Made by a program: the position numbers and the translations under genes
The notes under the pieces: generated by a model
Told to the model about the DNA's origin: nothing
Database searches by the model: none
The model's input: only the letters and a program-made list of their open reading frames with translations
Part shown: positions 37,246 to 54,435 of the stretch, piece after piece
Layout: each line of letters opens with the position of its first letter
Position numbering within the stretch: position 1 is the first letter of the stretch
Source: Vulcanimicrobiales bacterium
GTDB taxonomy: Bacteria; Vulcanimicrobiota; Vulcanimicrobiia; Vulcanimicrobiales; Vulcanimicrobiaceae
DNA length: 64,000 nucleotides
Direction of reading: 5' to 3'
Assembly: GCA_038231455.1 (NCBI GenBank)
Contig: JBBRLI010000011.1
Location: 1-64,000, forward strand

Positions 37246-38038
37246 GAAGAACCTCCGAGTAACCAAGTTCGCTTGCGAAGCGGGCGAGTCCAGCGCGCGC
37301 TTCATCGTCGAACGTATACGAGAGCGTCGAAAAATACTTGCTATAGAGTGCAGAATCCCGCGGGGCAAGGCGCTGGGCGCCGGCGATGACCTCATCCATG
37401 TGCGTTGCCGACCATGCGACGCTCTGCGCGAAGAGTGCGCCAAGTTCCGCGACCTGGCCCGGCCGCTCGTATGCGACTTCTTTGCGCGCCACCCACACCG
37501 CGAACACCATCGGCAGCGCCGTCCAGTCGTTCCACAGTTCGGCCAAATCGTAAAGATGGCTCGGCGGAAAGATGACTCGGGCATCGAGGGCGCGATCGCC
37601 GATCATGAGCGTCGGACGTCCGGCTCGGGCCGCAGCGATCGGATCGTCCACGGGCTCGAAGCGGGGATCGATGCCGTAGCGGCGTCGCAAAAGTAGATTG
37701 AGGAGCGCAAGACCACTGGCGGAGTCGCGTGTCACCGCAATCGGCGTATTCGCTAAGAGACCCGGCGGCATCGCCGAGACGAGTGCGACGGAGAGAACTT
37801 CATCGCGCGCTGCGATACAGACGTCCGGAATCAACGTGTAGCGTTCGGCATGACGGAGGTAATACGCAGCGCTCACGGGCCCAGCGTCGAGCTCCCCGCG
37901 AGCGAGTTTTGCGTTGAGGACACTGGGCACACCCGTGATGAATTGCGCGTCCGTTGGGATCGCGCCGGTATCGAACGCGGTATACACCGGAGCCACATTC
38001 GTGTAGGCGATCCGCCCCACGCGCAGCGGGTTAGACAC
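37232..38038 (-). CDS. mqnA: chorismate dehydratase
   Basis: GRIAYTNVAP, GVPSVLN, IGDRAL, DLAELW..WT.LPMVFAVW. Confidence 0.9.
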   Translation of the reverse strand: MSNPLRVGRIAYTNVAPVYTAFDTGAIPTDAQFITGVPSVLNAKLARGELDAGPVSAAYYLRHAERYTLIPDVCIAARDEVLSVALVSAMPPGLLANTPIAVTRDSASGLALLNLLLRRRYGIDPRFEPVDDPIAAARAGRPTLMIGDRALDARVIFPPSHLYDLAELWNDWTALPMVFAVWVARKEVAYERPGQVAELGALFAQSVAWSATHMDEVIAGAQRLAPRDSALYSKYFSTLSYTFDDEARAGLARFASELGYSEVLHVGR

Positions 38039-39188
38039 CGCTTGCGACGAGCTCCCCAGTCGGCGGCGTCCAGTCATACGGAAATTCTTCGTAGGTCGAA
38101 TTGCGGCGGACCGGCGTATAACCGACTTCTTCGATCAAACGGCGGAACTCACGGTCATCAACGTACTGTCCCGACTGCGTTCCGGCGCTATGGTAAATGC
38201 GCTCCTCATCAGTCGAGCCATGCGTGCCGTCCATGTCGTCAGCGCCGTATTGCAACGCGAGCTGGCAAATTTTCAGACCCTGAATCATCCAGTATGCTTT
38301 GATGTGGTCGAAGTTGTTGAGCATCAGGCGTGAGACGGCGAACATCCGAATGTCATCGAGGCCGCTTGTCCACCCATGTCCGCTCATCTCGTTACCGTCG
38401 GGGTGGAACGCGAGCGGGATGAATGAATTGAAACCCGGCGAGCGCTGCTGTGATTCGCGCAATGCTACAAGATGCTCGAGACGCTCCTCGAGCGTTTCGA
38501 TCGTGCCGTACAGCATCGTTGCGTTCGATGCGACGCCGTGCCGGTGAAGCGTTTCGTGAATCTTCAGCCAATTGTCGCCGTCGACTTTATTCGGGCAGAC
38601 GATCTTGCGAAAACGCGGCGAGAAGACTTCGGCGCCGCCGCCGTTGACGTTGTCCAGACCCGCTTCGCGAAGTTGCGCGCAAATCTCATCGTACGAAAGT
38701 CGATGACGGCGCGCCATATAGTCGATTTCGGCGGCGGTAAAGAGTGAGAGCTGAACGTGCGGCGCGGCTTCTTTGAAGCGGCGCATGAGCGGCAGCCAGT
38801 AATCGAGCGAGAGCTGGCGCGGATCGTGACCGCCAACGATGTGGAGCTGGTTGAAATTCGAACCGGTCTCCATCGCCTTCTCGAAAACGGTGTCGGCCGA
38901 CATACGCACCATGTCGCTATCTTTTTCGCTCTTGGAGAACGAGCAGAATTTACACGCGGCGTAGCAAACGCTCGTCGAATTGATGTACCGGTTGAGAACG
39001 TAGAACACGTTCTTCCCGCTCTTGCGCTCTTTCTGCGCTTGCGCCATGCGGCCGAGGCCGTGCAGATCGTGCGTTTTGAAGAGCGTCATGCCGTCATCGA
39101 TTGAGAGCGGGATGCCCTCTTCGACTTTGTGCTGGATCGGCTTGAGTGCGGGGTCGATGAGCGTCACGTGTGTTCCCTTGTTGTCCAC
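38031..39188 (-). CDS. mqnE: aminofutalosine synthase (CofH/MqnE radical SAM)
   Basis: CYAACKFCSF, HIVGG, GGGAEVF, SNATMLYG, FIPLAFHP, HIKAYW; adjacent to mqnA and mqnC. Confidence 0.85.
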   Translation of the reverse strand: MDNKGTHVTLIDPALKPIQHKVEEGIPLSIDDGMTLFKTHDLHGLGRMAQAQKERKSGKNVFYVLNRYINSTSVCYAACKFCSFSKSEKDSDMVRMSADTVFEKAMETGSNFNQLHIVGGHDPRQLSLDYWLPLMRRFKEAAPHVQLSLFTAAEIDYMARRHRLSYDEICAQLREAGLDNVNGGGAEVFSPRFRKIVCPNKVDGDNWLKIHETLHRHGVASNATMLYGTIETLEERLEHLVALRESQQRSPGFNSFIPLAFHPDGNEMSGHGWTSGLDDIRMFAVSRLMLNNFDHIKAYWMIQGLKICQLALQYGADDMDGTHGSTDEERIYHSAGTQSGQYVDDREFRRLIEEVGYTPVRRNSTYEEFPYDWTPPTGELVASGV

Positions 39189-39259
39189 TATAGAGATTAG
39201 AGTAGCTCCAGGCTCAAATCGTCACAAGGACGTTTGCCGCACGAGGGATGCAGGGGCAT

Positions 39260-39294
39260 GCAAAAGGGGCGGTCCCGAAGGACCGCCCCTTTGC
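39260..39294 (-). terminator. intrinsic terminator of receptor-lipoprotein module 1
   Basis: Minus strand AAAGGGGCGGTCC-TTCG-GGACCGCCCCTTTT: cUUCGg loop and U tail, just after the lipoprotein stop. Confidence 0.85.
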
Positions 39295-39311
39295 TTGGGT
39301 TGGAAAGGAAC

Positions 39312-40385
39312 CTATTCGGCTCCGACCGTGATCGCCGAAGCGGTGAGATCGGCTTGACCGTTCGCACCGGTAATCGACGGGGACTGCGAGAGATTGCCCG
39401 GAGGCGCTGCCTCGAAAGCCCCATAATCGAAGCCAATGGCAACGACGTTGATGGTATCGCCTGCAGCGAGCGTCGGGGTGGCGCCGCTGGTTAGCGTCGT
39501 CGGACCGAGTTTATCGGGGAGCTGGACGGTCTTTGCCGTGCCGCCGGGCACGAAGATCGAGTAGTAGAGTCCCGCGGTTGTGTCACGCACGTAGACGATC
39601 GTCTCCGTGACGCCTGGCGGGGGCGCAATCGCGATCGTCCCGCCGCCAAGCCCATCCGATGTGAACACCGGCGCGGGATAGGTTCCAAGCGGAGCGGTCG
39701 ACGTAAGCGCCGCGGCTGCCGTGAGAGTCGAGACCTGTTTCGGATCGGAAGAGGGAACCAACACGCTAAGCGTGTAGGTGCCCGGCGCGAGCGTCACGCC
39801 GGCGAACGACGCGAAGCCCGACGGATATCCGACGAATCCGCCAACGGTGTTACCGTCGGTGAACGTCGGGGTCGCCGGCGGCCCGAGGATCGGACGCATT
39901 TGCGTGGCCGAATAGAACGGTTCGCGGTAGTAGCCGGCCGTCGTGACGCCGACAATTTGCGACCCGCCGGTCGTCGAGTTGAGCGGAGCAAACCCGTAAC
40001 CGAACACGCCACCGGATTGCCCGAAGGTCGTCGCAACAGCCACATTCCCCGGCAGAGTCTGGAGCGTTGCGGTGATCGATCCCGTACCGGCGTCGGTACC
40101 GGCAGACGCTACTGCCGGTACGACGAAGCCGGCTGGGCCGACGATCGAGGGTGTGTTGAGCTGCGTTGCGCTCAGGCCGTTTGCCTGGCGGAACGTCGTG
40201 ACGGTATTCAAGCCCACCGTCCCGGCGTAGTTCGCGGTACCGACCGCGAACTGGAGTTTCGTAGTGGCTGGGACGTTTACCGACGTGTACGTCGGTAAAA
40301 CCCCAGCCTGACCGCCCGTGCACGCTGTGAGCACCGAAATGCATCCCAGCGCGGCGAGACGGAGTGACGTTTTCTGCAAGATCAT
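39312..40385 (-). CDS. uncharacterised lipoprotein, paralog 1
   Basis: Lipobox LTA-C; LQFAVGTAN..GLNTV..RQ.NGL shared with 46401-47567. Confidence 0.8.
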   Translation of the reverse strand: MILQKTSLRLAALGCISVLTACTGGQAGVLPTYTSVNVPATTKLQFAVGTANYAGTVGLNTVTTFRQANGLSATQLNTPSIVGPAGFVVPAVASAGTDAGTGSITATLQTLPGNVAVATTFGQSGGVFGYGFAPLNSTTGGSQIVGVTTAGYYREPFYSATQMRPILGPPATPTFTDGNTVGGFVGYPSGFASFAGVTLAPGTYTLSVLVPSSDPKQVSTLTAAAALTSTAPLGTYPAPVFTSDGLGGGTIAIAPPPGVTETIVYVRDTTAGLYYSIFVPGGTAKTVQLPDKLGPTTLTSGATPTLAAGDTINVVAIGFDYGAFEAAPPGNLSQSPSITGANGQADLTASAITVGAE

Positions 40386-40388
40386 CTC

Positions 40389-43300
40389 CTAGAAACCGAG
40401 CTGGTAGTAGAAACGGAACGAACGAGGCGTCGCGTTGGGGGTTTCGTAGTACGGTCCCTGACCGCCCAGACGTGCGCTGTAGTTCGGTGCGATTCCGATT
40501 CCGGGGAACGCAAGGGCCGTCGTCGAGTAACCCGTCTTCGGTCCAGCGATGCCCGTTGCCACCGGCTGATATCGGCCGGAAAGCGTCGGCTGCGTGTAGA
40601 GTTGATTGAACAGGTTGGTGATCAATACGCCGAAGGTTTGCTTCTGCGATGCGGGCGGCGTGAACTCAAACGAGATATTCGCCTGAGCGATACGCGCACG
40701 GCTCAAGAAGCCACCGGCGCTTGCTGTATCCGGCGTTCCGCGCGTCGTTGCGATGTTCGGCTTGCCGAACGTGCCGGGATTTTGCGGATCGACGTAGCGA
40801 TCGGTGCCGGTCGCACCGGCCGGATTGGTGATGTTGGTGTTGGGCACGTTTACCGGGACGCCGTTAACGAACGTCGCCGTGATGAGCCCGGGGCCGGTCG
40901 GATAGCCATTGTTGTAGTACAGGATCGGGTTGATTTTGAAGCCCGAACGCGTCTTGTATGCAAGGGCCGTCGTGATATTGAGCGGCGAGAGGAAGCCCAC
41001 GCGATACTGGTTGCCGAGCAAGAGTGACGGCGCAGGAATCGAGGGGAAGAAATCTTCCGATCCGCTCAGCGGGATAACGTTGGAGAACTCGTTGAGGTAC
41101 GTCACCGAAAGCTGGCCCGAGAGGCCGAAATTGGCTTCTTTGGTCAGGTATGCTTCAACGCCGGTCACGCGCGAAATCCCGAGATTGGTTTGCGTGGGCG
41201 GGTTGTAGATCAGTGCGCCGGTGATCGGGTCGGTGAGCGCTTTGCCGTTGACGATACGCGGGGTCGCGGACTGCGCGAGCCCGTCATAACCGCGACGGTA
41301 GAACGGCGTGATCTTGACCGCGACATTCTTCGGAAACTGGTGCGAGTACGAAGCATCAAAGTTCGTGAACGTCGATGACTTGACGGGCTGAATCGGAATG
41401 CCGAGATATGCCGTGGCATTGTTCCAATACAGCTGGTCCGCGTAGCTCTTACACAGACGGTCGGCCGTTGTGCCGCACCACGTCGCTGCCGATCCGGTCG
41501 TATTATCGAACGACGGGATGTTGTTGAACGCACTGAAGTCGTTCTTTTGTGGGGTCACATCGACGAATGCGAGCGCCGGAATTTCGACCGAGCGGCCGTA
41601 ACCCAAGCGCAGCGAGTCGTTCTTCGTGAACTGGTACGAGAGACCAAATCGCGGCTCGAATATCCGCGGCGTGCGTGTTTCATTCGAGTAGTTGAAGCGA
41701 TCGGCTGCCGGGTTCGGCGTACCGATCAGCGCAGCGTTACCGCCGTTGTTCGTAGCATCGTACAGGCCCGTCGCCGTCGGCAGACAGGTGTTGATGTTAC
41801 AAGCGGGCAGACGCAGGTTGGATCCGTCAAGACGAAGCCCGACATTGATCTTGAGCTTGTCGCTTGCGGTAAACGCATCGTTCAGATAGAGCGCGAAATC
41901 GTTACGATTCGTTGCCGTGCCTTCATCAGCCGGCGGAATGGTCGGAACGCCGCCCGAGAAGAACGATGAGCCGCCCGTGTTGCCGGTCGAGAGATAGCCG
42001 CCGGGCAGGAAGTCTGCCGCGGAGAATCCGTATCCGAATCCGGCATTGATCAAGAATCCGTCGGTTCCGGACGGCGAGCTGTAGACCGGATGCAAGTATT
42101 CGTACTTGCCGCCGACCGTCAACAGGTTCTTCGAGTTGAGCTGGCGCGTGATGTCGACTGCGAAGCCGGTACGTGCGCCGCCCTGGAGAGCCGTGAATTC
42201 CGCGTTCGAAAAGAACGCGGTCGCGTCGTACGGCCAGTCGAAGGTTACGACTGAGCCGACTTTATAGAATTTGGCCGTAAGGAACGTCGATGCATCCAGA
42301 TTGTTCGAATACTGGATTTTGAACGTATCGTTCGGCTGATGATAGTTGATCGGCGCGCGATTGAGTTTTTGCGTCGCCGACTGCTGATACGGATTGAGGG
42401 TAAGCACCGACTGGATTTGCGCTGTCGTGAAGCCCGAGACGGCCTTCGCGTTGGCGAGCCAGAACGGATCGTTCGACTTGAAATACAGGTTGCTGTATCC
42501 GCCGTAGCCTACGGCGAATTCATTGGCCTGATTCTGGTAGAAGAACTGGAGCTGCTGGCCATTGTCTTTACCGAACTTGTAAATCGCGTTGTTGACAAAG
42601 TCTTCCGACGTGTAGTTCGAGGTCGAATAGAAACGGTTGATCAGCGTTGCATCGGGTTGACCCGAACCGTAGCGGTTGCCCTGACGTGTTCCGATGAAGG
42701 AGGTGTAGTTCGAGAACCGGCCATTCGGCGTTGCGAAGCCGTACTCGCCGCGCAAGTAGTGATTGTAAGCCGGTGCGCCTGCATCGAGTTCGAATGTGCC
42801 GAACGGCGGGCGCGTGCCTTTGTTAGCAATCAGGTTGATGACGCCCGTGCCCGAGTTACCACTCGACGCGTCGCCGGCGCCCGGCGTGAGCTGGAGCGAT
42901 TGGACGCCGTTAATGGAAAGCGTGTTAACGAATTGGCTCGTGAACGCATCGGTGTAGTCGATGCCTTCGAACTGGAAGCCCTCTTCGTTCTCGCGTCCGC
43001 CGCGAAGCACCGGATAGCCGCTCGAATCGAGCGACGCGCCGGGGAGCGCGGTGAGAAGATTCGATTCGCTCGTGCCGCCTTTTTTACCAAGGACGGTATC
43101 GATCTGCGCCGCGGTCACCGTGTAGGTGTCGACGGTCTGCGTCGGCTGATACGCGCCGCCTTGGCTACGCGCCGTCGTGCGCCCGATGGTCTTGAGTTCT
43201 TTTGAGAGGGTGACATTGACGGTGTTCACCGCGTCGGCGAATACGCTGATACCCTGTTGGGTCTGCGGTTCGTATCCGGCGCCGGCAAATGACACGGTAT

Positions 43301-43556
43301 ACGTGTCGGGCGAAACGCCGAGGAACGAATAGTACCCCTGAGCGTTGGTCTTCGTCTGATAACGTCCGGTCGGCGATTGCGCCGTGACCGTCACGTTTGC
43401 GAGCGGGGTTCCGGCGACCGTCACGGTGCCGGCGATCTGTCCTGTCGTACCGGATATACCGGCCGACATGCTTGTAGCCACGAAGGCAATGATGAGCGCC
43501 ATACTGATAATGCCGCGCACATATTGAATCGTGGTACGCAGTGTCTTAGAAAACAC
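40389..43556 (-). CDS. Oar-like TonB-dependent receptor, paralog 1
   Basis: Signal peptide, carboxypeptidase-regulatory-like domain (TGQIAGTVT..TNAQGYYSF), plug-like LPG..LRGG, barrel-like INVGLRLD / EPRFGLSY, C-terminal RFYYQLGF. Confidence 0.85.
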   Translation of the reverse strand: MFSKTLRTTIQYVRGIISMALIIAFVATSMSAGISGTTGQIAGTVTVAGTPLANVTVTAQSPTGRYQTKTNAQGYYSFLGVSPDTYTVSFAGAGYEPQTQQGISVFADAVNTVNVTLSKELKTIGRTTARSQGGAYQPTQTVDTYTVTAAQIDTVLGKKGGTSESNLLTALPGASLDSSGYPVLRGGRENEEGFQFEGIDYTDAFTSQFVNTLSINGVQSLQLTPGAGDASSGNSGTGVINLIANKGTRPPFGTFELDAGAPAYNHYLRGEYGFATPNGRFSNYTSFIGTRQGNRYGSGQPDATLINRFYSTSNYTSEDFVNNAIYKFGKDNGQQLQFFYQNQANEFAVGYGGYSNLYFKSNDPFWLANAKAVSGFTTAQIQSVLTLNPYQQSATQKLNRAPINYHQPNDTFKIQYSNNLDASTFLTAKFYKVGSVVTFDWPYDATAFFSNAEFTALQGGARTGFAVDITRQLNSKNLLTVGGKYEYLHPVYSSPSGTDGFLINAGFGYGFSAADFLPGGYLSTGNTGGSSFFSGGVPTIPPADEGTATNRNDFALYLNDAFTASDKLKINVGLRLDGSNLRLPACNINTCLPTATGLYDATNNGGNAALIGTPNPAADRFNYSNETRTPRIFEPRFGLSYQFTKNDSLRLGYGRSVEIPALAFVDVTPQKNDFSAFNNIPSFDNTTGSAATWCGTTADRLCKSYADQLYWNNATAYLGIPIQPVKSSTFTNFDASYSHQFPKNVAVKITPFYRRGYDGLAQSATPRIVNGKALTDPITGALIYNPPTQTNLGISRVTGVEAYLTKEANFGLSGQLSVTYLNEFSNVIPLSGSEDFFPSIPAPSLLLGNQYRVGFLSPLNITTALAYKTRSGFKINPILYYNNGYPTGPGLITATFVNGVPVNVPNTNITNPAGATGTDRYVDPQNPGTFGKPNIATTRGTPDTASAGGFLSRARIAQANISFEFTPPASQKQTFGVLITNLFNQLYTQPTLSGRYQPVATGIAGPKTGYSTTALAFPGIGIAPNYSARLGGQGPYYETPNATPRSFRFYYQLGF

Positions 43557-43762
43557 GTAAGTACCTCGTGGTCCGAGTGAATAGGGCTAACCCGATGATA
43601 CTATGCCTTAACTCGTTCTTAAATCCTTTGGCAAAGCGAGAAAAGGCGTAGGTCCCGGGAAGTGTTCCATTGGACGATTGTCGGTTCCCGGGCGTCTCGC
43701 TTTCCGCAAAACTTTCGTAGTCGGGGGATTGCGAGCGCGATCCCGGAACCCTCGAACACGCA

Positions 43763-44632
43763 ATGGCCACCTCGACCCTTGCGGCTCCGGCGTCGCGCAG
43801 CTTTGCGCTCGATGTCTGGCGCCGTTTCCGAAAAGCTCCCGGCGCCATCGTCGGGGCCGCAATCGTCGCCTTTATCGTTCTCGCCGCAATCGCCGCGCCG
43901 CTGATCGCGGGCGCCGATCCGCTGGCCCAGAACCTCGCCAACCAGTCAGCCGCCCCAAACGCCGCGCATTGGATGGGTACGGACAAGCTCGGCCGGGACG
44001 TATTCTCCCGCATCCTCTTTGGAGCACGGACGTCGATTCGGATCGGCTTCGTCGCCGTCGGACTCGCGATCACGGTCGGGACGTTCATCGGCCTGCTCGC
44101 GGGGTATATCGGCGGTCGGCTCGATGCGGTGCTGATGAGCGCGATGGACGTCATGCTCGCGTTTCCCTCGATCATCTTGGCGATCGCCATCACGACGCTC
44201 CTCGGACCCAGCATCACCAATTTGATGCTCGCCGTTGGGATCGTCTACGTGCCGCAGTACGCGCGCCTCGCTCGCTCGTCGGTCCTTGCCGTCCGTGAGA
44301 CCGAGTATGTCGAAGCCGCCCGCGCGATCGGCGCGATGACACCGACGATTTTGATCCGGCACGTCCTGCCCAACATCTTGGCGCCGCTCCTGGTCCAGGC
44401 AACCCTGGGCGTGGCGACGGCCGAACTCGAGGCGGCGGGGCTTTCGTATCTGGGCCTCGGTGCGCGGCCGCCGGCGCCCGAGTGGGGCGCGATGCTCAAC
44501 GATGCACGCGATTACTGGCTCTCGGCGCCCTGGGCATTGATCTTCCCGGGCCTTGCCATCACCACACTGGTGCTCGGATTCAACCTGCTCGGCGACGGCC
44601 TCCGCGACGCACTCGATCCGAAAACAAAGTAG
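43763..44632 (+). CDS. ABC peptide/nickel transporter permease (DppC/OppC-like)
   Basis: HWMGTDKLGRDVFSR, EAA motif EYVEAARAIGA, RHVLPN, GDGLRDALDP. Confidence 0.92.
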   Translation: MATSTLAAPASRSFALDVWRRFRKAPGAIVGAAIVAFIVLAAIAAPLIAGADPLAQNLANQSAAPNAAHWMGTDKLGRDVFSRILFGARTSIRIGFVAVGLAITVGTFIGLLAGYIGGRLDAVLMSAMDVMLAFPSIILAIAITTLLGPSITNLMLAVGIVYVPQYARLARSSVLAVRETEYVEAARAIGAMTPTILIRHVLPNILAPLLVQATLGVATAELEAAGLSYLGLGARPPAPEWGAMLNDARDYWLSAPWALIFPGLAITTLVLGFNLLGDGLRDALDPKTK

Positions 44633-44635
44633 CGT

Positions 44636-45481
44636 ATGGCGATCGCCCTCGCCCTGATCGCTGCGCTGCTCTACGGAGCGGCTGACTTTATTGGAGGCCT
44701 GGCGAGTCGAAAAACGGCGACGGTCATCGTCGTGATCGTCTCGCAGTTGGCCGGCTTTTTCGTTCTGCTCGCGATCGTGCCGTTCTTAGGCGGGCGGCCA
44801 CTCGTGGTGGATCTCTGGTGGGGCGTTCTTGCCGGCGCGCTCGGCGCCGTTGGCATCGTGCTTTTGTACCGCGCCCTTGCGATCGGTCGCATGGGAATCG
44901 TCTCGCCGGTCACGGCCGTTATCGCAGCGACGATTCCCGTGCTTTTTGGAATCACGATTGGCGAGCGACCGAGTACGTTTGCCTGGATTGGTATCGGCCT
45001 TGCCATCGTGGCCGTCATCCTCATCTCGGCTCACGATCCCGCCGAAGAACGCGACCGCCGCGCATCGCTCGGCATGCCGATTGGCGTGCCGACCGCTATT
45101 CTCTCGGGAATCACACTCGGCTTCTTCTTCATCGTGCTTGCAAAAGTGCAGCCGATCAGCGGGCTCTATCCGCTCCTGAGTGCGCGCATCGCGTCGGTCG
45201 TGGCGCTGACGGTCGTAGCGCTCGCACAAGGCATTCCATTACGCACGACGCGCGCCGCGTTACCGGCGATCGTGTTTTCCGGCGCGCTCGATATGGGCGC
45301 AAATGCTCTTTACGTGATCGCGGCGCACAATGGCTTGATCGCAATCGCCGCGGTGCTCACATCACTCTACCCCGCGAGCACCGTCGCGCTAGCAGCGATG
45401 GTGCTCCACGAACGTCTCGCGCGCACGCAATGGATCGGCGTGGCGCTCGCGCTCGTCGGCGTCGTACTCGTCGCCCGCTGA
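44636..45481 (+). CDS. EamA/DMT family transporter
   Basis: About 10 TM in two repeats; YGAADF.GG, VSPV, SLYPA.TV, ERL.R.QW.G. Confidence 0.88.
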   Translation: MAIALALIAALLYGAADFIGGLASRKTATVIVVIVSQLAGFFVLLAIVPFLGGRPLVVDLWWGVLAGALGAVGIVLLYRALAIGRMGIVSPVTAVIAATIPVLFGITIGERPSTFAWIGIGLAIVAVILISAHDPAEERDRRASLGMPIGVPTAILSGITLGFFFIVLAKVQPISGLYPLLSARIASVVALTVVALAQGIPLRTTRAALPAIVFSGALDMGANALYVIAAHNGLIAIAAVLTSLYPASTVALAAMVLHERLARTQWIGVALALVGVVLVAR

Positions 45482-45494
45482 ACGAGAGCTGCTC

Positions 45495-46244
45495 TTACTG
45501 ACCGATGAATTCGTAGATTTGGGTGAAATCATCGATGCTGGCAAGACAGCGAAAACGTGTTGGTCGATAGCGGCTTTGCCGTGCTGCCAAGAGTGCTGCA
45601 TTCCCCAAATCCATCCCAACGACGGTATCGTGGCTTAGCTGCGCATCGATTGCGCGGCCATCGGGGCCGACCGTTACGATGACGGTCGTGCGTACACTTC
45701 GCTGGCCATAATTCGCGGCGATTCTTGAAACATCCGGCGGGATATGTTCGATTTCCGATACCGAGCTATCCGGCTCACGACACGTTGCGGTACCCGCCGC
45801 TCGCGCGTCAATGACGTTCGACAAACCAATCTTTGCAACGAAATCAGCGGCGCCGGTGGATGATTGACGGGTCGACGTCCATGGACGAAAGGGGGCGCAT
45901 TTGGTCCCGCCGACCGAAGCGACATACGCGCCGTCGATCGACTCCGGCACGCGGGCGACGATCGGACTCGCGCCGGCAAGCGATCCATCCAAACGCACGG
46001 GGCGGACGGTATCGACGTCCACATCATAGGACGTCAGCCCGTGCATGAGGCGAACGGTTGCGCCAGATATTGGATCGTCGGAACCATCGCGAGCAAGCGC
46101 AACCGCAACGGTTGCACCGGTAGAGGACGGAAAGACGGCTACAACGGCCGTACCGCAACTCGAAAGCGATTGCGCCTCGACGGGAGCCGCGAGGTTCGAC
46201 AGAACGATCGCAAGACAACAGAACGCTGCGGCAGACACCCTCAT
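45495..46244 (-). CDS. secreted protein with C-terminal TonB-C-like domain
   Basis: Signal peptide; VIVTVGPDGRAIDAQL..LGNAALLAARQSRYRP..C; downstream of receptor module 2. Confidence 0.7.
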   Translation of the reverse strand: MRVSAAAFCCLAIVLSNLAAPVEAQSLSSCGTAVVAVFPSSTGATVAVALARDGSDDPISGATVRLMHGLTSYDVDVDTVRPVRLDGSLAGASPIVARVPESIDGAYVASVGGTKCAPFRPWTSTRQSSTGAADFVAKIGLSNVIDARAAGTATCREPDSSVSEIEHIPPDVSRIAANYGQRSVRTTVIVTVGPDGRAIDAQLSHDTVVGMDLGNAALLAARQSRYRPTRFRCLASIDDFTQIYEFIGQ

Positions 46245-46400
46245 GTGCTTGCGGTTCGTTTGCGAAATCGGATCGCCTCCGGCAGAAAAAGAAACAACGT
46301 GCGCCCATCTTCCGATGGACTCACGCTGTTTTGTGACTCCGGTTCTCGACGACGTGGAGTCGATAGGTGGCGGAGATACGCCGCCGAGAGCGACTCGTTT

Positions 46401-47567
46401 CTAGGGCAGGGCCGCCGTCGTCACGACGGCCGAGGTCGAGATATCGGCTTGACCGCTAGCTCCGGTGATAGCCGGTTTTTGTTGGACATTCTGGGGCGGG
46501 CCCGCGCCAAATGCCGGATAGTCGAAACCGACAACATACACTTGCGCCTTGTCACCGGCGCACGTCGAGCGCACCGCTGCGTTGGTCAAGTATTTCGGTC
46601 CGAGGTTCGCCGGAATCGCCGGAAAGGCCGTGACGCCTGCGGTGTTGATCGCGGTAACGCGCGTGGTGTAATACACCGCGCCGTTGCCCGTACCGCCGCC
46701 TTGATACGGAGCGGGGTAACATGCTCCGGTTCCGGCAGCAGCCGCACTCGCAACACCACCGATACGGACGATGGCCATCGCCTCGGTGATACGCGGGTCG
46801 GTGATCGTGGCAGAAACGGTACCGCCGCCAGCGCCGTCTGGCGTGAACGTGACACCGGTAATAGCGCCCAAAGGCGTAACGTTGGTGAGCGTCCCCGTTG
46901 CGCTAGCGGTCGTCGTTGTTGGATTCCCACTGGCATCAAATCCCGTCGGAACGAGCAGCGAGAGCGCGTAGGCGCCGGCAACGGGTGCCACGTTGAAATC
47001 CGTGAAGCCCATTGGATACCCGGTGAAGCCCGAGGGGAACGTGCCGTCGCGCACGTTGGGGTACGCGGGTGCGCCCCCAATGTACGGAACGGCCGTAACG
47101 CCTGCGGGCGCATAGAACGGCAGCGAGTAACGCGTAAACGAAGGCGAATTACTCGAAGCCGTTGAGTTGGCGGGTTGGAATCCATACGCGAATGCGCCGC
47201 CGGCCGTGCCGAGGGTCGATGCGGTGGCGGCCGTTCCAAGTGTTACCTGAGGCGAACCCGAGATCGTTGCCGTCCCCGAGTTAACGCCCGCAGCCGCAGC
47301 GGACCCGGTATTGGTGAACCCAGCCGGCCCGGTGATGGTCGGCGTGCTCAGGAGCGTGCCGTCCAGACCGTTGGGCTGGCGCCAGGTCACGACGGTATTC
47401 AGGCCCGTCGCGACGCCGGCGATGTTTGCGGTTCCAACCGCGAATTGGAGGCTGTTGGTGCTCGTCGAGACGTCCACGGCGCGCTGGTTCGGCGGAATGC
47501 CGACCTGGCCCGCGGTGCATCCCGCTAGAGCAACTGCGGCAAACGCCGCGATCATGTGTCTTTGCAA
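46401..47567 (-). CDS. uncharacterised lipoprotein, paralog 2
   Basis: Lipobox LAG-C; shares N- and C-terminal blocks with 39312-40385. Confidence 0.8.
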   Translation of the reverse strand: MQRHMIAAFAAVALAGCTAGQVGIPPNQRAVDVSTSTNSLQFAVGTANIAGVATGLNTVVTWRQPNGLDGTLLSTPTITGPAGFTNTGSAAAAGVNSGTATISGSPQVTLGTAATASTLGTAGGAFAYGFQPANSTASSNSPSFTRYSLPFYAPAGVTAVPYIGGAPAYPNVRDGTFPSGFTGYPMGFTDFNVAPVAGAYALSLLVPTGFDASGNPTTTTASATGTLTNVTPLGAITGVTFTPDGAGGGTVSATITDPRITEAMAIVRIGGVASAAAAGTGACYPAPYQGGGTGNGAVYYTTRVTAINTAGVTAFPAIPANLGPKYLTNAAVRSTCAGDKAQVYVVGFDYPAFGAGPPQNVQQKPAITGASGQADISTSAVVTTAALP

Positions 47568-47576
47568 GATGTCGTC

Positions 47577-50500
47577 CTAGAGAGCCAGCTGGTAGTAGAA
47601 ACGGACTGCGGTCGGAGCACCGCTCGGAGCGAGAATGTAGGCATTCCGACCATAGCGCTCCTGACCGTAGTTATAGAATCCGTAGACGGTTCCGAGCGTC
47701 TGCGTCGAGGCCGTTTGGCCCGTCTGCGGTCCGCCAACGCCCGTTGCAACGGGCTGCCAACGCGAATTCAGGCCCGGCTCCGAGTAAACCAGATTGAAGA
47801 TGTTGGAAATGTACGCTCCAAACGTGTTTTTGGAACCCGGTGCCGACAGCTCGAACGAGAGATCGAGGTTGCCGCGGGCGCGTGAGAGGACGCCGCCTGC
47901 AAGCGATGTTTCCGACGTACCGCGTGTCGCCGCAATGTTCGGGCTGAGGATCGAACCCGGATTGGTCGGCGATACGTATTGCGTAACCAACAGACTCGTA
48001 CCGGAGTTCGCGACAGCACCGCCGCCGACCGTAGCGGCATTGGTATTTCCGACGACGCGGGCAGTACCGTTGACCGTCGCGGCTACGAGTGTACCAGCGC
48101 CAATCGGGAAGCCCTTATCGAACGAGAAGATCGGGTTGATACGGAGACCCGCGCGGTTTTTATAGCTCAGGCCAACGCGGCCGGTTAGCGGCGAGAGATA
48201 GCCCGCTTTGTAGAGTTGTCCGAGCTGAAGCGAGACGGGAGGAATCGAGGGGTAGAAATCCTCGGTTTGACCGCCGTAGCCAGGAGGGACGTTCTGCAGA
48301 CGGTTCACGTAGGTTGCGCTAACGAAGCCCGACACACCGTATGGGACGTCTTTTGTGAGATAGAACTCGACGCCGGTCGATTTGTCGATCCCGCTATTCG
48401 AGAGTCGCGCCGAACCAAAGAGCGGCAGACCCGTGTTGACGTCCGCCCCAATGACGGGTGTTGTAAACACGTTGACATCGTAACCGCGCTTGAAGAATGG
48501 CGTGACCTTGAGGCCGACGCCGCCCTTGAACTGATGCGAATACGAGAAGTCATAGTTATTGTAGGTAGCCGGTTTCACGTTGAAGCTTTCCAAGCCGAAC
48601 GCTTGCACGTATTCGTCGTGGAGTTGCTGCGCGTAATTTGAGCACGCCGACGTGAAGAGGGGCGCGCCGCAGGTCTGCGCGGTTGTCCCGGTGCGTGAAT
48701 CACGCGAAGGAACCCCGGCAAACTGTTGGTAGGTCGAGATGGGATTGTTAATAAGAATTCCGGGCACGAACTGGACCGATCGTCCGTATGACGCGCGAAT
48801 GGCATCCGCATTGGAGATCTGATACGCCCCGGCAAAGCGCGGTTCGATGACGCGCGGATGACGTGCATCATCGGTGATGTACGAGTAGCCGTTTACGAAC
48901 TGCTGGTTGTCGCCATCGAGACGAATACCATAGTCCAGGCGCAGCTTCGAGCTTACGTTGAACTGGTCGCGGATACCGATTCCCCAAATCTGCGAATGTC
49001 CGCCGTTGTAGGCGCGAAGATTCGGAATGATCAGTTGGCCGCCCGGGTTTCCGAGCGCAGCCAGGTTGGCGGCGTTGTAGAGATATCCGCAGCCGTTGCC
49101 GCTGGCATTGCCGACTTTGCTAAGCGCATTGCCGCTCAGATCCGAGGTCGGGCAGGGTTGGCCCGGTTGGATGAAGTCCGCGAGTTCGTAGCCGGGCGTT
49201 CCGGCGAGGCCGGATGCCGCGCGGAATCCGAGCGTGTTGCTGGTGTAGTCATACTGCGTGTCTTGCGACTCGTAGAGATAACTGAAATCGATTTGGTGCT
49301 TGCCTGAAGTGCGAATAAGATCGCCGCTCAGACCCGACCGGCCGCCGCCTTGATAGGCGATGCGCGAACCGGTACCGGTACCCGCGTATGTCGTATCAAA
49401 TCGAGCGGTACCGACGACGTGGTAGAGGCGGTTTGCCCAATAGGTCTTGTCATCGATGAGTTGATCGAGTTCGAGTTTTGCAACATCAACCGGTTGGTAC
49501 TGATGTGGCTGATAGGCGAGGTTCGAGAGAACGTTTGGTTGCCCAGGCAACAGATCGATGAGCGACTGGACTTCGCCTGTGCGAGCCGCAGCGGCCACAC
49601 CGGGAAGCGCGGGCGTGAGATTCGGTAAGGCTGTTGGGTCGTTCGTCTTGTAAAAGTAGTTCTGCCAACCATTGCGGCCGACGTTGAAATCCGAGAGACG
49701 ATCCTGCAGCAAGAGCTGAAGCGAACGCGAGTTGTCGTGACCGAAACGGTAGACCGTATTATTCACGATGTCGCGCGTCTTGACGAACTCCGTTGCGAAG
49801 ACCGAGCCGCTGATGTACGCCGGCGTGCCGATCGTACCGTAAATGCGGTCCTGATTTTGCGCAAGGAACGACGTGTAGTTCGAGAGTCGTCCGCTCGGCG
49901 TTGCGAAGCCGTACTCGAGACCCAGTTGGTGGGTAAACGGATAACCAACGGCTTCGAGGTCGATCTGACCGAACGGCGGGCGCGCGCCGCGCTTGACGAC
50001 GATGTTGATGGCACCGGCTCCAGCGTTGCCTTGCGTGGCATCGCCGGCGCCCGGGTTTACCTGCAGCGATTGAAGTCCGTTGATACCAAGCGAGTTTTGA
50101 AACTGCGAGGTAGCGGGATCCGTGTAGTTGATTCCATCAAATTGATACGCGAGTTCCGTACGAGTCGATCCGCGAATCGACGATGATCCATAGACCGTCT
50201 GTTGGATGCCCGGAACCGAGCTTTGAAGCTGCGTTTGCGAAATGTTGAACGATTTTCCAAGCGCCGTCTGGAGTTGCGCTCCGGAAACCTGATAGGTGTC
50301 CGTCGGCTGCTTGGGCTGGAACGCTTGCGACTGCGATCGCGATGAAACGCGGCCGATCGTCTGAAGCGATTTCGACAGATTGACATCCTGGTTGACGATT
50401 CCGTCGCCCTGAACGGTCACACCGTTGAGCGTAATCGGCTCGTAGGCGCCGATTGTGAAATTGACCTGATACGTGTCAACGGGTAAGCCGACGAAGCGGT

Positions 50501-50732
50501 ACGCGCCGCGTTCGTCGGTTGTTGTCTTCTGAACGATTGCGGCCGATGCCACAGTGACCGTTACTCCGCGTACGGGAGCCTTGGTGGTCGCATCGACGAC
50601 GGTGCCAGTGAGTGTGCCGTTCGTACCGCCAATTGCAAACGCCGGCGCAAATGAGCCGACGAGCAAGGCGAACGTGAGAGCAACCACGGCGACCGCTCGA
50701 ATCGACCCGAAAACGAGTCGTGAGTAAGCCAT
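47577..50732 (-). CDS. Oar-like TonB-dependent receptor, paralog 2
   Basis: Signal peptide, GTLTGTVVD..TDERGAYRF, plug-like VPG..IRG, DYGIRLD, EPRFAGAY, C-terminal RFYYQLAL; AAGGAG SD. Confidence 0.85.
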   Translation of the reverse strand: MAYSRLVFGSIRAVAVVALTFALLVGSFAPAFAIGGTNGTLTGTVVDATTKAPVRGVTVTVASAAIVQKTTTDERGAYRFVGLPVDTYQVNFTIGAYEPITLNGVTVQGDGIVNQDVNLSKSLQTIGRVSSRSQSQAFQPKQPTDTYQVSGAQLQTALGKSFNISQTQLQSSVPGIQQTVYGSSSIRGSTRTELAYQFDGINYTDPATSQFQNSLGINGLQSLQVNPGAGDATQGNAGAGAINIVVKRGARPPFGQIDLEAVGYPFTHQLGLEYGFATPSGRLSNYTSFLAQNQDRIYGTIGTPAYISGSVFATEFVKTRDIVNNTVYRFGHDNSRSLQLLLQDRLSDFNVGRNGWQNYFYKTNDPTALPNLTPALPGVAAAARTGEVQSLIDLLPGQPNVLSNLAYQPHQYQPVDVAKLELDQLIDDKTYWANRLYHVVGTARFDTTYAGTGTGSRIAYQGGGRSGLSGDLIRTSGKHQIDFSYLYESQDTQYDYTSNTLGFRAASGLAGTPGYELADFIQPGQPCPTSDLSGNALSKVGNASGNGCGYLYNAANLAALGNPGGQLIIPNLRAYNGGHSQIWGIGIRDQFNVSSKLRLDYGIRLDGDNQQFVNGYSYITDDARHPRVIEPRFAGAYQISNADAIRASYGRSVQFVPGILINNPISTYQQFAGVPSRDSRTGTTAQTCGAPLFTSACSNYAQQLHDEYVQAFGLESFNVKPATYNNYDFSYSHQFKGGVGLKVTPFFKRGYDVNVFTTPVIGADVNTGLPLFGSARLSNSGIDKSTGVEFYLTKDVPYGVSGFVSATYVNRLQNVPPGYGGQTEDFYPSIPPVSLQLGQLYKAGYLSPLTGRVGLSYKNRAGLRINPIFSFDKGFPIGAGTLVAATVNGTARVVGNTNAATVGGGAVANSGTSLLVTQYVSPTNPGSILSPNIAATRGTSETSLAGGVLSRARGNLDLSFELSAPGSKNTFGAYISNIFNLVYSEPGLNSRWQPVATGVGGPQTGQTASTQTLGTVYGFYNYGQERYGRNAYILAPSGAPTAVRFYYQLAL

Positions 50733-50912
50733 CCGGAACTCCTTTAGAAGGAAAGGATCAATAGCAAACAGCGGCCTCGTCCTGAAGATCGACCACTCTG
50801 CACATTAAGACTTCCTAAATGCAAGACGCCTTCCTGCCAAATACGCTTTTCGCCCAACGGCAATCGTACGTCAATCTTCAGTAAAGCCGCGTCTTTTCCG
50901 AACAAATCGCGC

Positions 50913-51986
50913 CTAGAGAGACGCCCAAACGTCAAGCTTGTTCTTCACCTTGCCGATAACAGCATCGGTAAATTCACTGGTCGAGGACTGGCCGCCGAGG
51001 TCGCTTGTCGCGGTTCCCTCGCGGACCGTTTCGAGCACGCCCTCGTAAATCGCACGCGATGCGGTCGTGGCCCGGCGATCGTCGATATACGAGAGGACGG
51101 CCGCTGAGGCAAGGATCATCGCCATCGGGTTTGCGACGTTCTTCCCGAACAACCGTGGTGCCGTGCCGTGCGGAGCTTCGGCCATGACGACGTCCGGCTT
51201 GAACTCCGCATCGAAGGACATAAGCACGGATTCGGCGCCGGCGATGGAGCCGAAGAGTTGCATGACAAGATCCGAGAGGCAGTCTCCGTCGCGGTTGAGC
51301 GAGGGGATCACCATCGCATCGCCCGGATTGGAGATAAGGAGAGCATAGGTCGCGTCGATCAGCTGGGGGTCGTACTCAACATCCGGGTAGCGAGCGGCTG
51401 CGGCATCCATCTCTTCTTTTAAGAGGCCTTCATAAACCGGGCTCACGGTGTACTTCGGGCCACCGAAAACTTTGCTGTGCGTGCGGCGCGCGTGGAAAAA
51501 CGCGTACTCGGCGACCGCTCGGCAGACGGTCCGCTCGATTCTCTCGGTACGAAAGGCGATTTCATTATCACCCTCGCCTTCGCGCCACTCTTTTGCACCA
51601 TATGCGTCGCCGACGGCCATGCGCACGATCGCGATCGGCGCGTGGATTCCGGCGACCGGGCGGACACCCGGAATACGGCGACCGGTTCGCAAGATGACTT
51701 TCCCGTCGATCTCTTTGCGGATGATGGCGTTGGGCGAGCCGACGTCACCTTTGATTTCGGGCGTGATCGTCGCCGCCTTGAGTCCGAGCTTATGCAACTT
51801 CATCGCGGCGGCAGCTTCGTATGCGACGCCGTTCTTCGTCGCGCGCCGCTTCTCGAGCGAGAGATCGTAGTGTTCGAATGCAAGGTCCATGCCGATGACG
51901 CTCGGTTCCAGAACGCGCAGTGCTTCGACGAGCAATTCTTGACCGGTCTGATCGCCTTCAAGAACGACGATGGTGGGCTTGGACAC
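50913..51986 (-). CDS. isocitrate/isopropylmalate dehydrogenase family protein
   Basis: LEGDQTGQE, LKAATITP, SPN, NRDGDCLSDL, EAPHGTAP, ANPMAMIL; GTG after AGGAG; substrate not assignable. Confidence 0.88.
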   Translation of the reverse strand: MSKPTIVVLEGDQTGQELLVEALRVLEPSVIGMDLAFEHYDLSLEKRRATKNGVAYEAAAAMKLHKLGLKAATITPEIKGDVGSPNAIIRKEIDGKVILRTGRRIPGVRPVAGIHAPIAIVRMAVGDAYGAKEWREGEGDNEIAFRTERIERTVCRAVAEYAFFHARRTHSKVFGGPKYTVSPVYEGLLKEEMDAAAARYPDVEYDPQLIDATYALLISNPGDAMVIPSLNRDGDCLSDLVMQLFGSIAGAESVLMSFDAEFKPDVVMAEAPHGTAPRLFGKNVANPMAMILASAAVLSYIDDRRATTASRAIYEGVLETVREGTATSDLGGQSSTSEFTDAVIGKVKNKLDVWASL

Positions 51987-52098
51987 GCGACTCCTAACAT
52001 GCAGAGAGCAAACAATCTGGAATTCCGGCCCGCCTAAGGGAATCACTTCTGCCGCTTGGCGACAGGTGTTAATCCATGCGTCTGTAAGGTTTTAGGCC

Positions 52099-54435
52099 AT
52101 GGCACGCGTACGCCGTAAGGCGACTGCGACGATGCGTCTGAATTTCGAGATCGCCGGAATCGCGGCCCTCGGTATCGCGATTCTTCTTGGTGTTGCGCTC
52201 GTGCTTCCGCCTGCGCGCTCGGGACTTATCGGCGCGAATACTGCGGCCGGACTGCGTTTCTTGTTCGGTAGCGCCGCCGCATTATTTCCGGTCCTCATCG
52301 CAATCATCGGGGCGATCGTCTTCCTCGAAATCAACGTGCCCAAGCTGATGGCCACCTGGGGTCTTGCGGCGCTCGGATATTTCATCGTCGTCGACGCGTT
52401 CTTCGGTAGGCACGGTGGATTGCTCGGCTCGAGCGTTTCCGGCGGACTGCATACGCTGCTCGGCGATTTTGGGACGGCACTCTTGCTTGCTCTTCTCGCG
52501 CTCGGCATCACCGTGTGGATCACCAACGTCTCGGTCAAGAAAGTCATCGGCTGGTGCATCGCGCGAATCTCGGCCATGTGGCCGGCGCCGCGCGAGCGCG
52601 AAACAAAACCCGCTGCCGCACTTGCGCCCGGACCGAAAAACCTGCGCGAAGCGTTCAATCTTCCCGCCATACTGCCACGCGCACCGGCGCGCGCCGCAAG
52701 TGCGACCACCGCGGCTGCAGCTCCGCTCGCATCGATGACGACCGCGCATGACGAATCGGTCGATGAGATCGAAGATGACGAGGACCTCGAAGATGATGAA
52801 GAACTCGATGACGAGGCGTACGACGATTACGATGAAGAGGATGAGGACGGCGAGATCGACGAGCCGTTCGTCATCCCCGCACCCGTTGTCGCGGTAGCTC
52901 CGGTGCGCGTCGCGGCTACCGCTGCGACGGCTGCGGCCGTCGCGGTGGTCGGCGAATACGAATCCGCTTCGAGCACGCGCGCCGGAGGCGTCGTGTATCG
53001 CTTGCCCGATCTTTCGCTCTTCGATCCGCCACAAGCGCAAAAAGTCGATGAGACCTCGCGCGCGAGCACGCTCGAAGACACGCTCGCCTCGTTCGGCGTC
53101 GGCGCCAAAGTACAGCACATCGAACGCGGTCCCTCGATTACGCGCTACGAACTCAAACCCGATCGCGGCGTAAAAATCTCGCGTATCTCATCGCTTGCCG
53201 ACGATCTTGCACTTGCACTTGCGGCTACCTCGGTGCGCATCGAAGCGCCGATTCCCGGCAAGTCCGCCGTCGGCATCGAAGTCCCGAACGCGACCGTCTC
53301 GATCGTGGCAATCCGCGAGATCTTCGATGCATTTCCGTCGCGCGGCACGATCCCGCCACTCAACATGGCGCTCGGCAAAGACATAACGGGCCGCCCCGTT
53401 TACGGCGATCTGGGGAAGATGCCGCATTTGCTCGTCGCCGGAGCGACCGGCAGCGGCAAGAGCGTTTGCCTCAATTCGATCATCGCATCGATCCTCGTCT
53501 CGGCGACACCCGATCAAGTGCAAATGCTCATGATCGATCCCAAACGCGTCGAGCTCACGGTCTATAACGGAATTCCGCATCTGATCGAACCCGTCATTAC
53601 GGATGCGAAGATGGCAGCGGGCGCGCTCTTTCAGATGACCAAGGAAATGGACTCGCGATACGAGCGTTTCGCCAAAGCCGGCGTCCGCAAAATCGAAGAG
53701 TACAATGCGAAGTTCCCCGACGAGCAGCTGCCATACGTCGTGATCGTGATCGACGAGCTTGCCGATCTGATGCTGATCGCACCGGCGAAAGTCGAGACGA
53801 CGATCTGCCGTCTCGCGCAGCTCGCGCGCGCGACGGGTATCCATCTCATCGTTGCAACGCAGCGGCCGTCGGTCGACGTCATTACCGGCATCATTAAAGC
53901 GAACATTCCTTCGCGCATCGCCTTTGCCGTAAGCTCGCAAGTCGATTCGCGTACCATTCTCGACATGGGCGGCGCGGAACGCCTGCTCGGCCGCGGCGAC
54001 ATGCTCTTCTTACCCATCGATGCGCCCAAACCCAAGCGCGCACAAGGCGCACTCGTCACGAGCGCAGAGATTTCGCGTTTGGTCGATTTCTGGGCCGCTC
54101 AAGCACGTCCGGATAACCTCATCGAAGTCGAGATTACCCCGATCTCCGATGACGACGACAAAGGCTCGCGAAACGTCGATCCGCTTTGCTACGATGCAGC
54201 CAAGTTCATCATCGAGAGCAACTTTGCATCGACGGCGCAATTGCAGTCGCACTTCTCGGTCGGCCACCCGCGGGCAGTTCGGATCATGAAGCAGCTCGAA
54301 GACTTCAAAGTGGTCGGGCCGCACGAAGGCACGAAGCCGCGCACGATCAAGCTGCGTATCGACGAACTCGAAGTGATCGCGTCGCGCTTAGGCAAGGACG
54401 ACAGCCAACAAGACCTCTTCGCCGCCGGATCCTAG
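52099..54435 (+). CDS. ftsK: DNA translocase FtsK
   Basis: N-terminal TMs, PHLLVAGATGSGKS, IDPKRVEL, IDELADLM, ATQRPS, gamma domain. Confidence 0.95.
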   Translation: MARVRRKATATMRLNFEIAGIAALGIAILLGVALVLPPARSGLIGANTAAGLRFLFGSAAALFPVLIAIIGAIVFLEINVPKLMATWGLAALGYFIVVDAFFGRHGGLLGSSVSGGLHTLLGDFGTALLLALLALGITVWITNVSVKKVIGWCIARISAMWPAPRERETKPAAALAPGPKNLREAFNLPAILPRAPARAASATTAAAAPLASMTTAHDESVDEIEDDEDLEDDEELDDEAYDDYDEEDEDGEIDEPFVIPAPVVAVAPVRVAATAATAAAVAVVGEYESASSTRAGGVVYRLPDLSLFDPPQAQKVDETSRASTLEDTLASFGVGAKVQHIERGPSITRYELKPDRGVKISRISSLADDLALALAATSVRIEAPIPGKSAVGIEVPNATVSIVAIREIFDAFPSRGTIPPLNMALGKDITGRPVYGDLGKMPHLLVAGATGSGKSVCLNSIIASILVSATPDQVQMLMIDPKRVELTVYNGIPHLIEPVITDAKMAAGALFQMTKEMDSRYERFAKAGVRKIEEYNAKFPDEQLPYVVIVIDELADLMLIAPAKVETTICRLAQLARATGIHLIVATQRPSVDVITGIIKANIPSRIAFAVSSQVDSRTILDMGGAERLLGRGDMLFLPIDAPKPKRAQGALVTSAEISRLVDFWAAQARPDNLIEVEITPISDDDDKGSRNVDPLCYDAAKFIIESNFASTAQLQSHFSVGHPRAVRIMKQLEDFKVVGPHEGTKPRTIKLRIDELEVIASRLGKDDSQQDLFAAGS

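Follow-up and report, generated by a model that had tools for sequence, protein, structure and literature searches.

Two neighbouring gene pairs in the genome of a Vulcanimicrobiales bacterium (GenBank assembly GCA_038231455.1) each encode a predicted TonB-dependent transporter and, directly downstream, a predicted lipoprotein. Both pairs lie on the minus strand of the window, by which we mean the whole stretch of 64,000 nucleotides that was analysed (contig JBBRLI010000011.1, positions 1 to 64,000; contig C11 of the 3.71-Mb assembly, which is 93.7% complete). According to our analysis, the pairs are best explained as class-specific two-component uptake units, in which a TonB-dependent transporter would work together with a surface-tethered beta-sandwich lipoprotein that binds its rim and captures substrate, and we put the probability of this reading at roughly 0.55. 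The lipoproteins probably represent a new family of partner proteins for nutrient uptake.

Module A consists of receptor A (47577-50732, minus strand), an open reading frame of 1051 residues with a signal peptide, a CarboxypepD_reg-like N-terminal domain, a plug and a barrel, and of lipoprotein A (46401-47567, minus strand), an open reading frame of 388 residues with a TTG start, an ATG four codons further in and the lipobox LAGC. Module B comprises receptor B (40389-43556, minus strand), an open reading frame of 1055 residues with a GTG start that likewise encodes a predicted TonB-dependent transporter, and lipoprotein B (39312-40385, minus strand), an open reading frame of 357 residues with the lipobox LTAC. 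The four genes form two paralogous modules, as the receptors share 37% identity over 1098 alignment columns and the lipoproteins 40% over 389 columns (E 6e-61), far beyond chance. An earlier note on this DNA had recognised the duplication from motif blocks common to the two receptors of about 1050 residues, and these blocks (EYGFATP.GR.SNYTSF, SYSHQF, GVE.YLTK, RWQP/RYQPVATG, RFYYQL) are visible in the alignment, as are the two that it had reported for the lipoproteins (LQFAVGTAN... and GFDY.AF.A.PP.N..Q.P.ITGA.GQAD). Its reading that each receptor is trailed by a lipobox protein at 3-9 nt was likewise borne out: the gap from receptor stop to lipoprotein start is 9 nt in module A and 3 nt in module B. 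Because this gap is so short, the lipoprotein gene is almost certainly co-transcribed with its receptor gene. A search of sequencing runs found no RNA data set containing the window sequence and one DNA data set, which is probably the source sample.

Profiles and a structural model indicate that receptors A and B are genuine TonB-dependent transporters, as the earlier note had proposed. The Pfam family PF13620 (CarboxypepD_reg) matches both at an E-value of about 1e-14 (1.2e-14 for receptor A) and the TonB-dependent barrel PF00593 matches over its cut-off (1.4e-9 for receptor A, 5.3e-9 for receptor B), while the Pfam Plug family reaches an E-value of 0.25, below its cut-off, in receptor A and has no match in receptor B. 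Database homologs of the receptors are already labelled 'TonB-dependent receptor'. An NCBIfam scan (E<=1) returned two weak adhesin-domain matches for receptor A, none for receptor B, and for neither receptor a match to TIGR04056, the SusC/RagA model named by Price et al., which we take to be part of the NCBIfam library. Receptor B had no match among PDB sequences at E<=0.01.

The AlphaFold2 model of receptor B, built on 34 homologs, has a predicted local distance difference test score (pLDDT) of 81 and a predicted template modelling score (pTM) of 0.76. It comprises a predicted N-terminal beta-sandwich (residues 39-112), a linker of low confidence (residues about 120-132), a plug (residues ~145-244) and a barrel with 22 assignable strands (residues ~252-1054), leaving ~808 residues after the plug. 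Foldseek matched the model to solved transporters with E-values down to 5e-26, and VIA gave Z-scores of 31-36 to Fiu, Cir, BtuB and other solved transporters; solved BtuB-BtuG complexes also appear among the fold matches. Residues 126-1055 of the model align with residues 6-594 of BtuB (Z 34.8, root-mean-square deviation (rmsd) 3.0, 530 residues), an alignment that spans the position of the TonB box as well as the plug. The candidate TonB box itself is a conserved L..L..I.....R pattern (LKTIGRTTAR, residues 121-130) within the low-confidence linker, aligned with the start of BtuB.

The two smaller proteins are predicted to be lipidated. Both begin with a signal peptide that ends in the lipobox, and at least 90% of 51 homologs retain the lipobox cysteine (Cys22); the linker of ~18 residues behind it starts with a conserved T-[SG]-G-[QN] motif and continues with prolines. 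Alanine, glycine, threonine and proline make up 49-53% of their residues. Scans of both lipoproteins against Pfam and NCBIfam (E<=1) and of the family profile against PDB sequences (E<=1) gave no match, which supports the view of the earlier note that they stand outside characterised families; in the ESM Atlas the best scores were 0.87-0.88, all to unnamed clusters and below the level at which we would take a match as more than a lead. The E-value of lipoprotein A against the family profile is 5.4e-117. When 1.84 billion cluster representatives were searched with the profile, 407 family members were retrieved at E<=0.001, and the family is therefore small. Among the named organisms with a homolog are Vulcanimicrobium alpinum (WPS_07610, 48% identical), Candidatus Elarobacter, Rubrimentiphilum and 'Eremiobacteraeota', which places the window in Eremiobacterota (WPS-2).

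The AlphaFold2 model of lipoprotein B (51 homologs, pLDDT 83.9, pTM 0.81) is all-beta, with 17 strands and, the signal peptide aside, no more than short helices, and is a confident prediction of two generic FN3/Ig-like beta-sandwich domains. Domain 1, which has long loops and is disordered at 135-154, would span residues ~42-227, and domain 2 would cover residues ~232-357 of a mature protein of ~335 residues. Foldseek and VIA returned only generic tandem FN3/Ig or cytokine-receptor-like matches (best Foldseek E 5e-5, template modelling score ~0.2), and domain 2 alone reached a VIA Z-score of 5.8 (rmsd 2.2, 89 residues); since this tandem FN3/Ig arrangement is generic, the fold says nothing about the ligand. 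An hhalign comparison of domain 1 with domain 2 (probability 0.4%) detected no internal duplication. SusD identity was considered and rejected: because of the all-beta, two-sandwich model, and with no match to the SusD families of Pfam and NCBIfam, the lipoproteins are certainly not SusD, and the apparent beta-richness that the earlier note had remarked on agrees with the model. SusD, BtuG, TbpB and SusE/F chains were not among the matches listed by Foldseek and VIA, though families beyond those listed are not excluded. In lipoprotein B, residues 41-135 and 318-350 are the most conserved and insertions concentrate after positions 150 and 272, so the description of conserved ends and a variable middle was roughly right.

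Linkage of the two genes was surveyed by scanning one genome per GTDB species, which yielded 61 related loci. Lipoprotein copies were kept where the tblastn match included the N-terminus (query start <=60), and partial ones, such as those in L057, L063 and L064, were dropped, leaving 66 copies, 60 of them with at least 1 kb of upstream sequence. In 55 of these 60 the end of a family receptor on the same strand lies at -14 to +32 nt upstream, or at 167 nt in one case, so that homologs are mostly linked to a receptor rather than mostly unlinked, in line with the pairing proposed earlier. The typical gap of ~6 nt is kept across many genera and through several whole-module duplications. In two of the five exceptions (L038, L065) the gene is an additional lipoprotein copy that directly follows a receptor-lipoprotein pair, and five of the six copies with less than 1 kb upstream still show a receptor C-terminus at the contig edge. 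The genome of the window itself has four full-length receptor paralogs, three of which have a family lipoprotein behind them. The third module lies on contig C18 (receptor 47855-51289, plus strand; lipoprotein 51305-52546), and the fourth receptor, on contig C36 (8859-12556, minus strand), is 73% identical to receptor B.

The distribution of both families was examined in 301 genomes of the phylum, including six flagged as unpublished, none of which carries a claim by itself; the families f1-f3 of this sample are labelled as sharing family, order and class with the genome of the window. The lipoprotein profile matched 181 of the 301 genomes (f1 161/215, f2 2/4, f3 17/23, 0/58 in the other 16 families), with one to six matches per genome and often a single copy. 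Receptor B at E<=1e-80 matched 124 of the 301 (f1 104/215, f2 0/4, f3 19/23, others 0/58). Both families were thus found only in three related Eremiobacterota families of this sample. Complete modules also occur in records titled Rhodospirillales (L027, L036, L045), Candidatus Limnocylindrales (L030, L031) and 'uncultured proteobacterium' (L056, L060, L065), which seem more likely to be mislabelled or mis-binned metagenome-assembled genomes than cases of gene transfer. At two loci the receptor match (L005 8194-11421; L064 11-4083), and at L064 also the lipoprotein, is split into pieces in different frames, which suggests pseudogenised modules or assembly errors.

Three further lines of evidence bear on whether the two proteins meet. 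Among 39 receptor/lipoprotein pairs, the distance matrices correlate with r 0.83, a value reached by none of 999 Mantel permutations, and the receptor and lipoprotein trees have 17 of 36 splits in common (label shuffles: mean 0.13, maximum 2). The predicted extracellular loops L9 (826-858) and L10 (884-954) of the receptor have mean conservation of 0.75 and 0.64, compared with 0.58 for the membrane strands, and loops L2-L6 and L8 range from 0.27 to 0.43. We infer that the conserved L9-L10 patch, on one side of the barrel mouth, might fit a docking site for a conserved partner. Finally, a complex was predicted from the barrel of receptor B (residues 248-1055, without the plug) and domain 1 of lipoprotein B (residues 36-227), giving a median interaction prediction score from aligned errors (ipSAE) of 0.55 (runs 0.67, 0.00 and 0.55), whereas the best of three controls scored 0.00. 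The mark set for this score is reached by 58 of 80 solved complexes and 2 of 110 mismatched pairs, and with scores of at most 0.60 it is reached by only 7 of the 80 solved complexes and by both passing mismatches. Contact agreement between runs was at least 0% and the pLDDT of the partner at least 62. This truncated prediction weakly favours contact between receptor and lipoprotein.

A number of observations weigh against two-component uptake units, and the rival explanations draw on some of them. Three of the 60 lipoprotein genes have no upstream receptor (L026, L050 and the first copy in L047), and the receptor on contig C36 is followed after 2 nt by a secreted protein of 172 residues with a signal peptide and no lipobox; being a recent duplicate, this receptor might use lipoprotein B jointly with receptor B or do without a partner. 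Neighbouring genes are expected to covary through co-inheritance alone, and the congruence of the trees is partial, with the A-type clade monophyletic for the receptors and not for the lipoproteins. Correlated distance matrices that co-inheritance can yield, together with the unpaired receptor and the three unpaired lipoprotein genes, would also fit two co-transcribed neighbours with independent functions and no physical contact. We consider this highly improbable given the ~6-nt adjacency in 55 of 60 copies, across many genera and several whole-module duplications, and a complex score that is weak yet above all controls.

The structural evidence contains contrary points as well. The best VIA Z-score of the lipoprotein B model is 7.1, a level rated as a common arrangement, and the complex prediction, made on a receptor stripped of its plug, had one run at 0.00, a contact agreement of 0% and no reported interface. 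As no interface was reported, contact on either face would fit the prediction, and the lipoprotein could instead sit in the inner leaflet of the outer membrane and face the periplasm, where it might take over substrate, stabilise or assemble the barrel, or modulate the access of TonB to the N-terminal domain. Diderm lipoproteins face the periplasm by default, and adjacency and covariation fit this location equally well. No export signal or machinery was identified in searches whose controls were weak: LolA (PF03548) had no match in the 93.7%-complete genome, despite the presence of lipoproteins and an outer membrane, with a model that also missed the Bacteroides control and may be limited in sensitivity, and Slam (PF04575) had none, with a model that matched no control genome either. 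To our knowledge, no machinery for surface-lipoprotein export is known for Eremiobacterota. Two features speak against a periplasmic lipoprotein: the periplasmic turns of the modelled barrel are short (2-7 residues), and outside the membrane strands conservation is highest in the predicted extracellular loops L9-L10. The known conserved lipoproteins that are encoded beside a transporter and have a demonstrated role (SusD, BtuG, XusB, TbpB, HpuA) are moreover surface-exposed, and the one probably periplasmic case in the survey of Bacteroides by Price, Deutschbauer and Arkin is BT0149, a protease homolog (bioRxiv 10.1101/2023.03.17.533168). We treat the periplasmic alternative as serious, if unlikely.

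The remaining points against an uptake unit concern the neighbourhood. Neither glycoside hydrolase nor peptidase nor siderophore genes flank the modules in the 61 loci, and an Rfam scan of positions 38000-53000 (E<=1) found no riboswitch or other RNA. In the window and the related loci the flanks hold genes for isocitrate/isopropylmalate dehydrogenase, FtsK, menaquinone synthesis, EamA, an OppC-like permease, an amidase and RNase J; since these are all housekeeping genes, they give no hint of the substrate. Such a conserved housekeeping neighbourhood without catabolic genes might equally surround a structural or export unit of the Eremiobacteria envelope; the pair could, for example, be an Oar-like TonB-dependent exporter or a major protein complex of the outer membrane in which the lipoprotein is a fixed subunit. 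Oar-type TonB-dependent transporters have a role in export, precomputed Pfam lists assign the Oar-like barrel PF25183 to a few receptor homologs, and the modules occur in most genomes of the class, often in single copy. Pfam reports no PF25183 for either receptor of the window, however, and one to six matches per genome with paralog-specific variable loops are more typical of substrate-diversified importers, which makes this explanation improbable in our view.

Import by a two-component unit has a plausible cellular setting. The genome has seven TonB_C, three ExbD, one Omp85/BamA and 13 TonB-dependent barrel matches in Pfam; the TonB_C and ExbD matches are over their cut-offs, and matches to these two families cluster on contig C3 at 78-82 kb. 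The cultured Vulcanimicrobium alpinum has a typical Gram-negative envelope with an outer membrane covered by lipopolysaccharide (PMC9758169). Because of these TonB, ExbD and BamA genes and the lipopolysaccharide-bearing membrane of V. alpinum, a TonB-energised outer-membrane system is plausible in the source organism.

In the proposed mechanism, the long TonB-dependent transporter would be energised by the TonB-ExbBD system of the genome. The lipid-anchored lipoprotein, with its flexible linker and two FN3/Ig-like domains, would be exported to the cell surface and dock on the conserved extracellular loops L9-L11 of the receptor, where it could capture or retain substrate over the barrel mouth before TonB-driven import. 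It would thereby play a role analogous to that of SusD, SusE/F, BtuG or TbpB, although it is not related to any of these proteins. Differences between paralogous modules in the variable lipoprotein loops (after positions 150 and 272) and in loops L2-L6 and L8 of the receptor would tune what is bound. By analogy, the lipoprotein may close over the barrel as a lid like SusD or stand beside it as a side-arm like SusE/F or TbpB, and both modes are compatible with our results. From the long barrel and the N-terminal domain we would guess that the nutrient is oligomeric or bulky and not a small siderophore.

Among known systems, the modules can be compared with SusC/SusD and RagA/RagB of Bacteroidota, with which they have in common a long transporter, a CarboxypepD_reg-like N-terminal domain, a lipoprotein gene directly downstream and duplication of the whole unit. 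E. coli transporters have 468-592 residues after the plug and the lid-associated non-SusC transporters of Bacteroides a median of 569, and SusC is described as 'substantially longer' (10.1101/2023.03.17.533168). The ~808 residues found here, compared with ~470-590 in non-SusC transporters, are thus a SusC-like feature. Judged by model and profiles, the receptors resemble SusC in architecture, with their N-terminal extension and long loops, and fall outside the SusC family by sequence: unlike SusC, they have no relevant NCBIfam match at E<=1 in a library that presumably contains TIGR04056. The partner is also different, being modelled as an all-beta protein of two sandwiches and ~335 mature residues, whereas SusD is an alpha-helical TPR protein. 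The modules furthermore belong to another phylum and have no glycan- or peptide-degrading genes nearby.

Lipoprotein partners or lids other than SusD have been described for non-SusC transporters of Bacteroides, namely BtuG, XusB/DUF4374, DUF4249, DUF4625, DUF4876 and BT4056/ElpS, on the evidence of adjacency, multimer prediction and cofitness (10.1101/2023.03.17.533168). The earlier note had suggested an independently evolved lid unrelated to SusD. What holds of this idea is the new family in a new phylum, and what does not is the degree of novelty, as these non-SusD lids were already published (10.1101/2023.03.17.533168). The lipoproteins of Eremiobacterota differ from them in having no Pfam match at E<=1, the DUF families included, and no PDB match; in accompanying receptors of SusC length rather than transporters of ordinary length (median 569 residues); and in belonging to a family found only in Eremiobacterota and known from sequence and models. 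That Eremiobacteria independently evolved a SusCD-like 'pedal-bin', in which a lipoprotein with two beta-sandwich domains, from a family that no other group has, closes a transporter of SusC length, is a possibility that we hold only tentatively and regard as doubtful on the present evidence.

SusE and SusF consist of tandem Ig-like/beta-sandwich domains, and the lipoproteins described here are similar in being lipid-anchored tandem Ig-like/beta-sandwich proteins encoded in a transporter operon. They differ in that they have no Pfam match to the SusE/SusF families and no recognised carbohydrate-binding site, and in that SusE/SusF follow SusD and accompany SusCD, whereas here the beta-sandwich lipoprotein is the only partner. 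In TbpA/TbpB and HpuB/HpuA of Neisseriaceae, the classical bipartite systems, an all-beta surface lipoprotein on a long anchoring linker captures the ligand and hands it over (PMC7857515). The modules share with these systems a TonB-dependent transporter and an all-beta lipoprotein with a linker; TbpB and HpuA differ from the two sandwich domains modelled here in combining a beta-handle or sandwich with an 8-stranded barrel and in being Slam-dependent. No chains of the TbpB/HpuA type were among the listed fold matches of the lipoprotein model, with unlisted families not excluded. The gene order of tbpBA and hpuAB, with the lipoprotein first, is the reverse of that in the modules.

Several other features accompany the modules in the window. 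In the 206-nt intergenic region upstream of receptor B, a tentative sigma-70-like promoter match (9/12) lies at 43595-43622 on the minus strand; since the whole scan found four such sites against 3.4 expected from shuffles, it is a consensus match and not evidence of function. Divergent from receptor B, at 43763-44632 on the plus strand, is a lone OppC-like ABC permease gene (OppC_N and BPD_transp_1), followed by an EamA transporter and with no OppA/B/D/F genes beside it. This permease cluster adjoins the module in 21 of the 61 related loci and could be a hint of peptide uptake or plain synteny. Directly downstream of lipoprotein B (36163-39188, minus strand) are three menaquinone genes of the futalosine-pathway type, two radical-SAM CofH/MqnC-like and one VitK2_biosynth, a neighbourhood that recurs in related loci.

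Downstream of lipoprotein A, after 156 nt, a secreted protein of 249 residues is encoded at 45495-46244 on the minus strand. It has no Pfam match, and its C-terminus appears TonB_C-like by eye but was not listed in the Pfam TonB_C search of the genome. We considered it as a part of the module and rejected it because neither the 61 related loci nor the rest of the genome yielded a homolog. On contig C2, at ~8.7-10 kb on the minus strand, a distinct TonB-dependent transporter of 770 residues is followed after 177 nt by an unrelated lipobox protein of 326 residues, and the two may form a transporter-lipoprotein pair of another kind.

Our understanding of TonB-dependent transporters that have a lipoprotein partner of their own comes mainly from Bacteroidota (SusCD, BtuBG) and a few Proteobacteria (TbpAB), and Eremiobacterota are an abundant yet barely studied phylum of soil and oligotrophic habitats. 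The novelty lies in a lipoprotein family unrelated to the known partners, in the SusC length of the transporters with which it is paired and in its restriction to Eremiobacterota; literature searches on TonB in Eremiobacterota and on the outer membrane of Vulcanimicrobium turned up no account of such a system by title or abstract. Price et al. ask why lids seem to be tied to Bacteroidota (10.1101/2023.03.17.533168). A class-wide, tightly linked pair with an unrelated lipoprotein family would, if true, be an independent example outside that phylum, and a true 'pedal-bin' would make lidded TonB-dependent import recurrent in diderms rather than a speciality of Bacteroidota. A surface location of the lipoprotein, if true, would imply an export route for surface lipoproteins that is new to Eremiobacterota. 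As the cultured relative Vulcanimicrobium alpinum has a homolog of the lipoprotein, the system is testable, and several hundred 'hypothetical proteins' (407 cluster representatives) would gain a likely role and a name.

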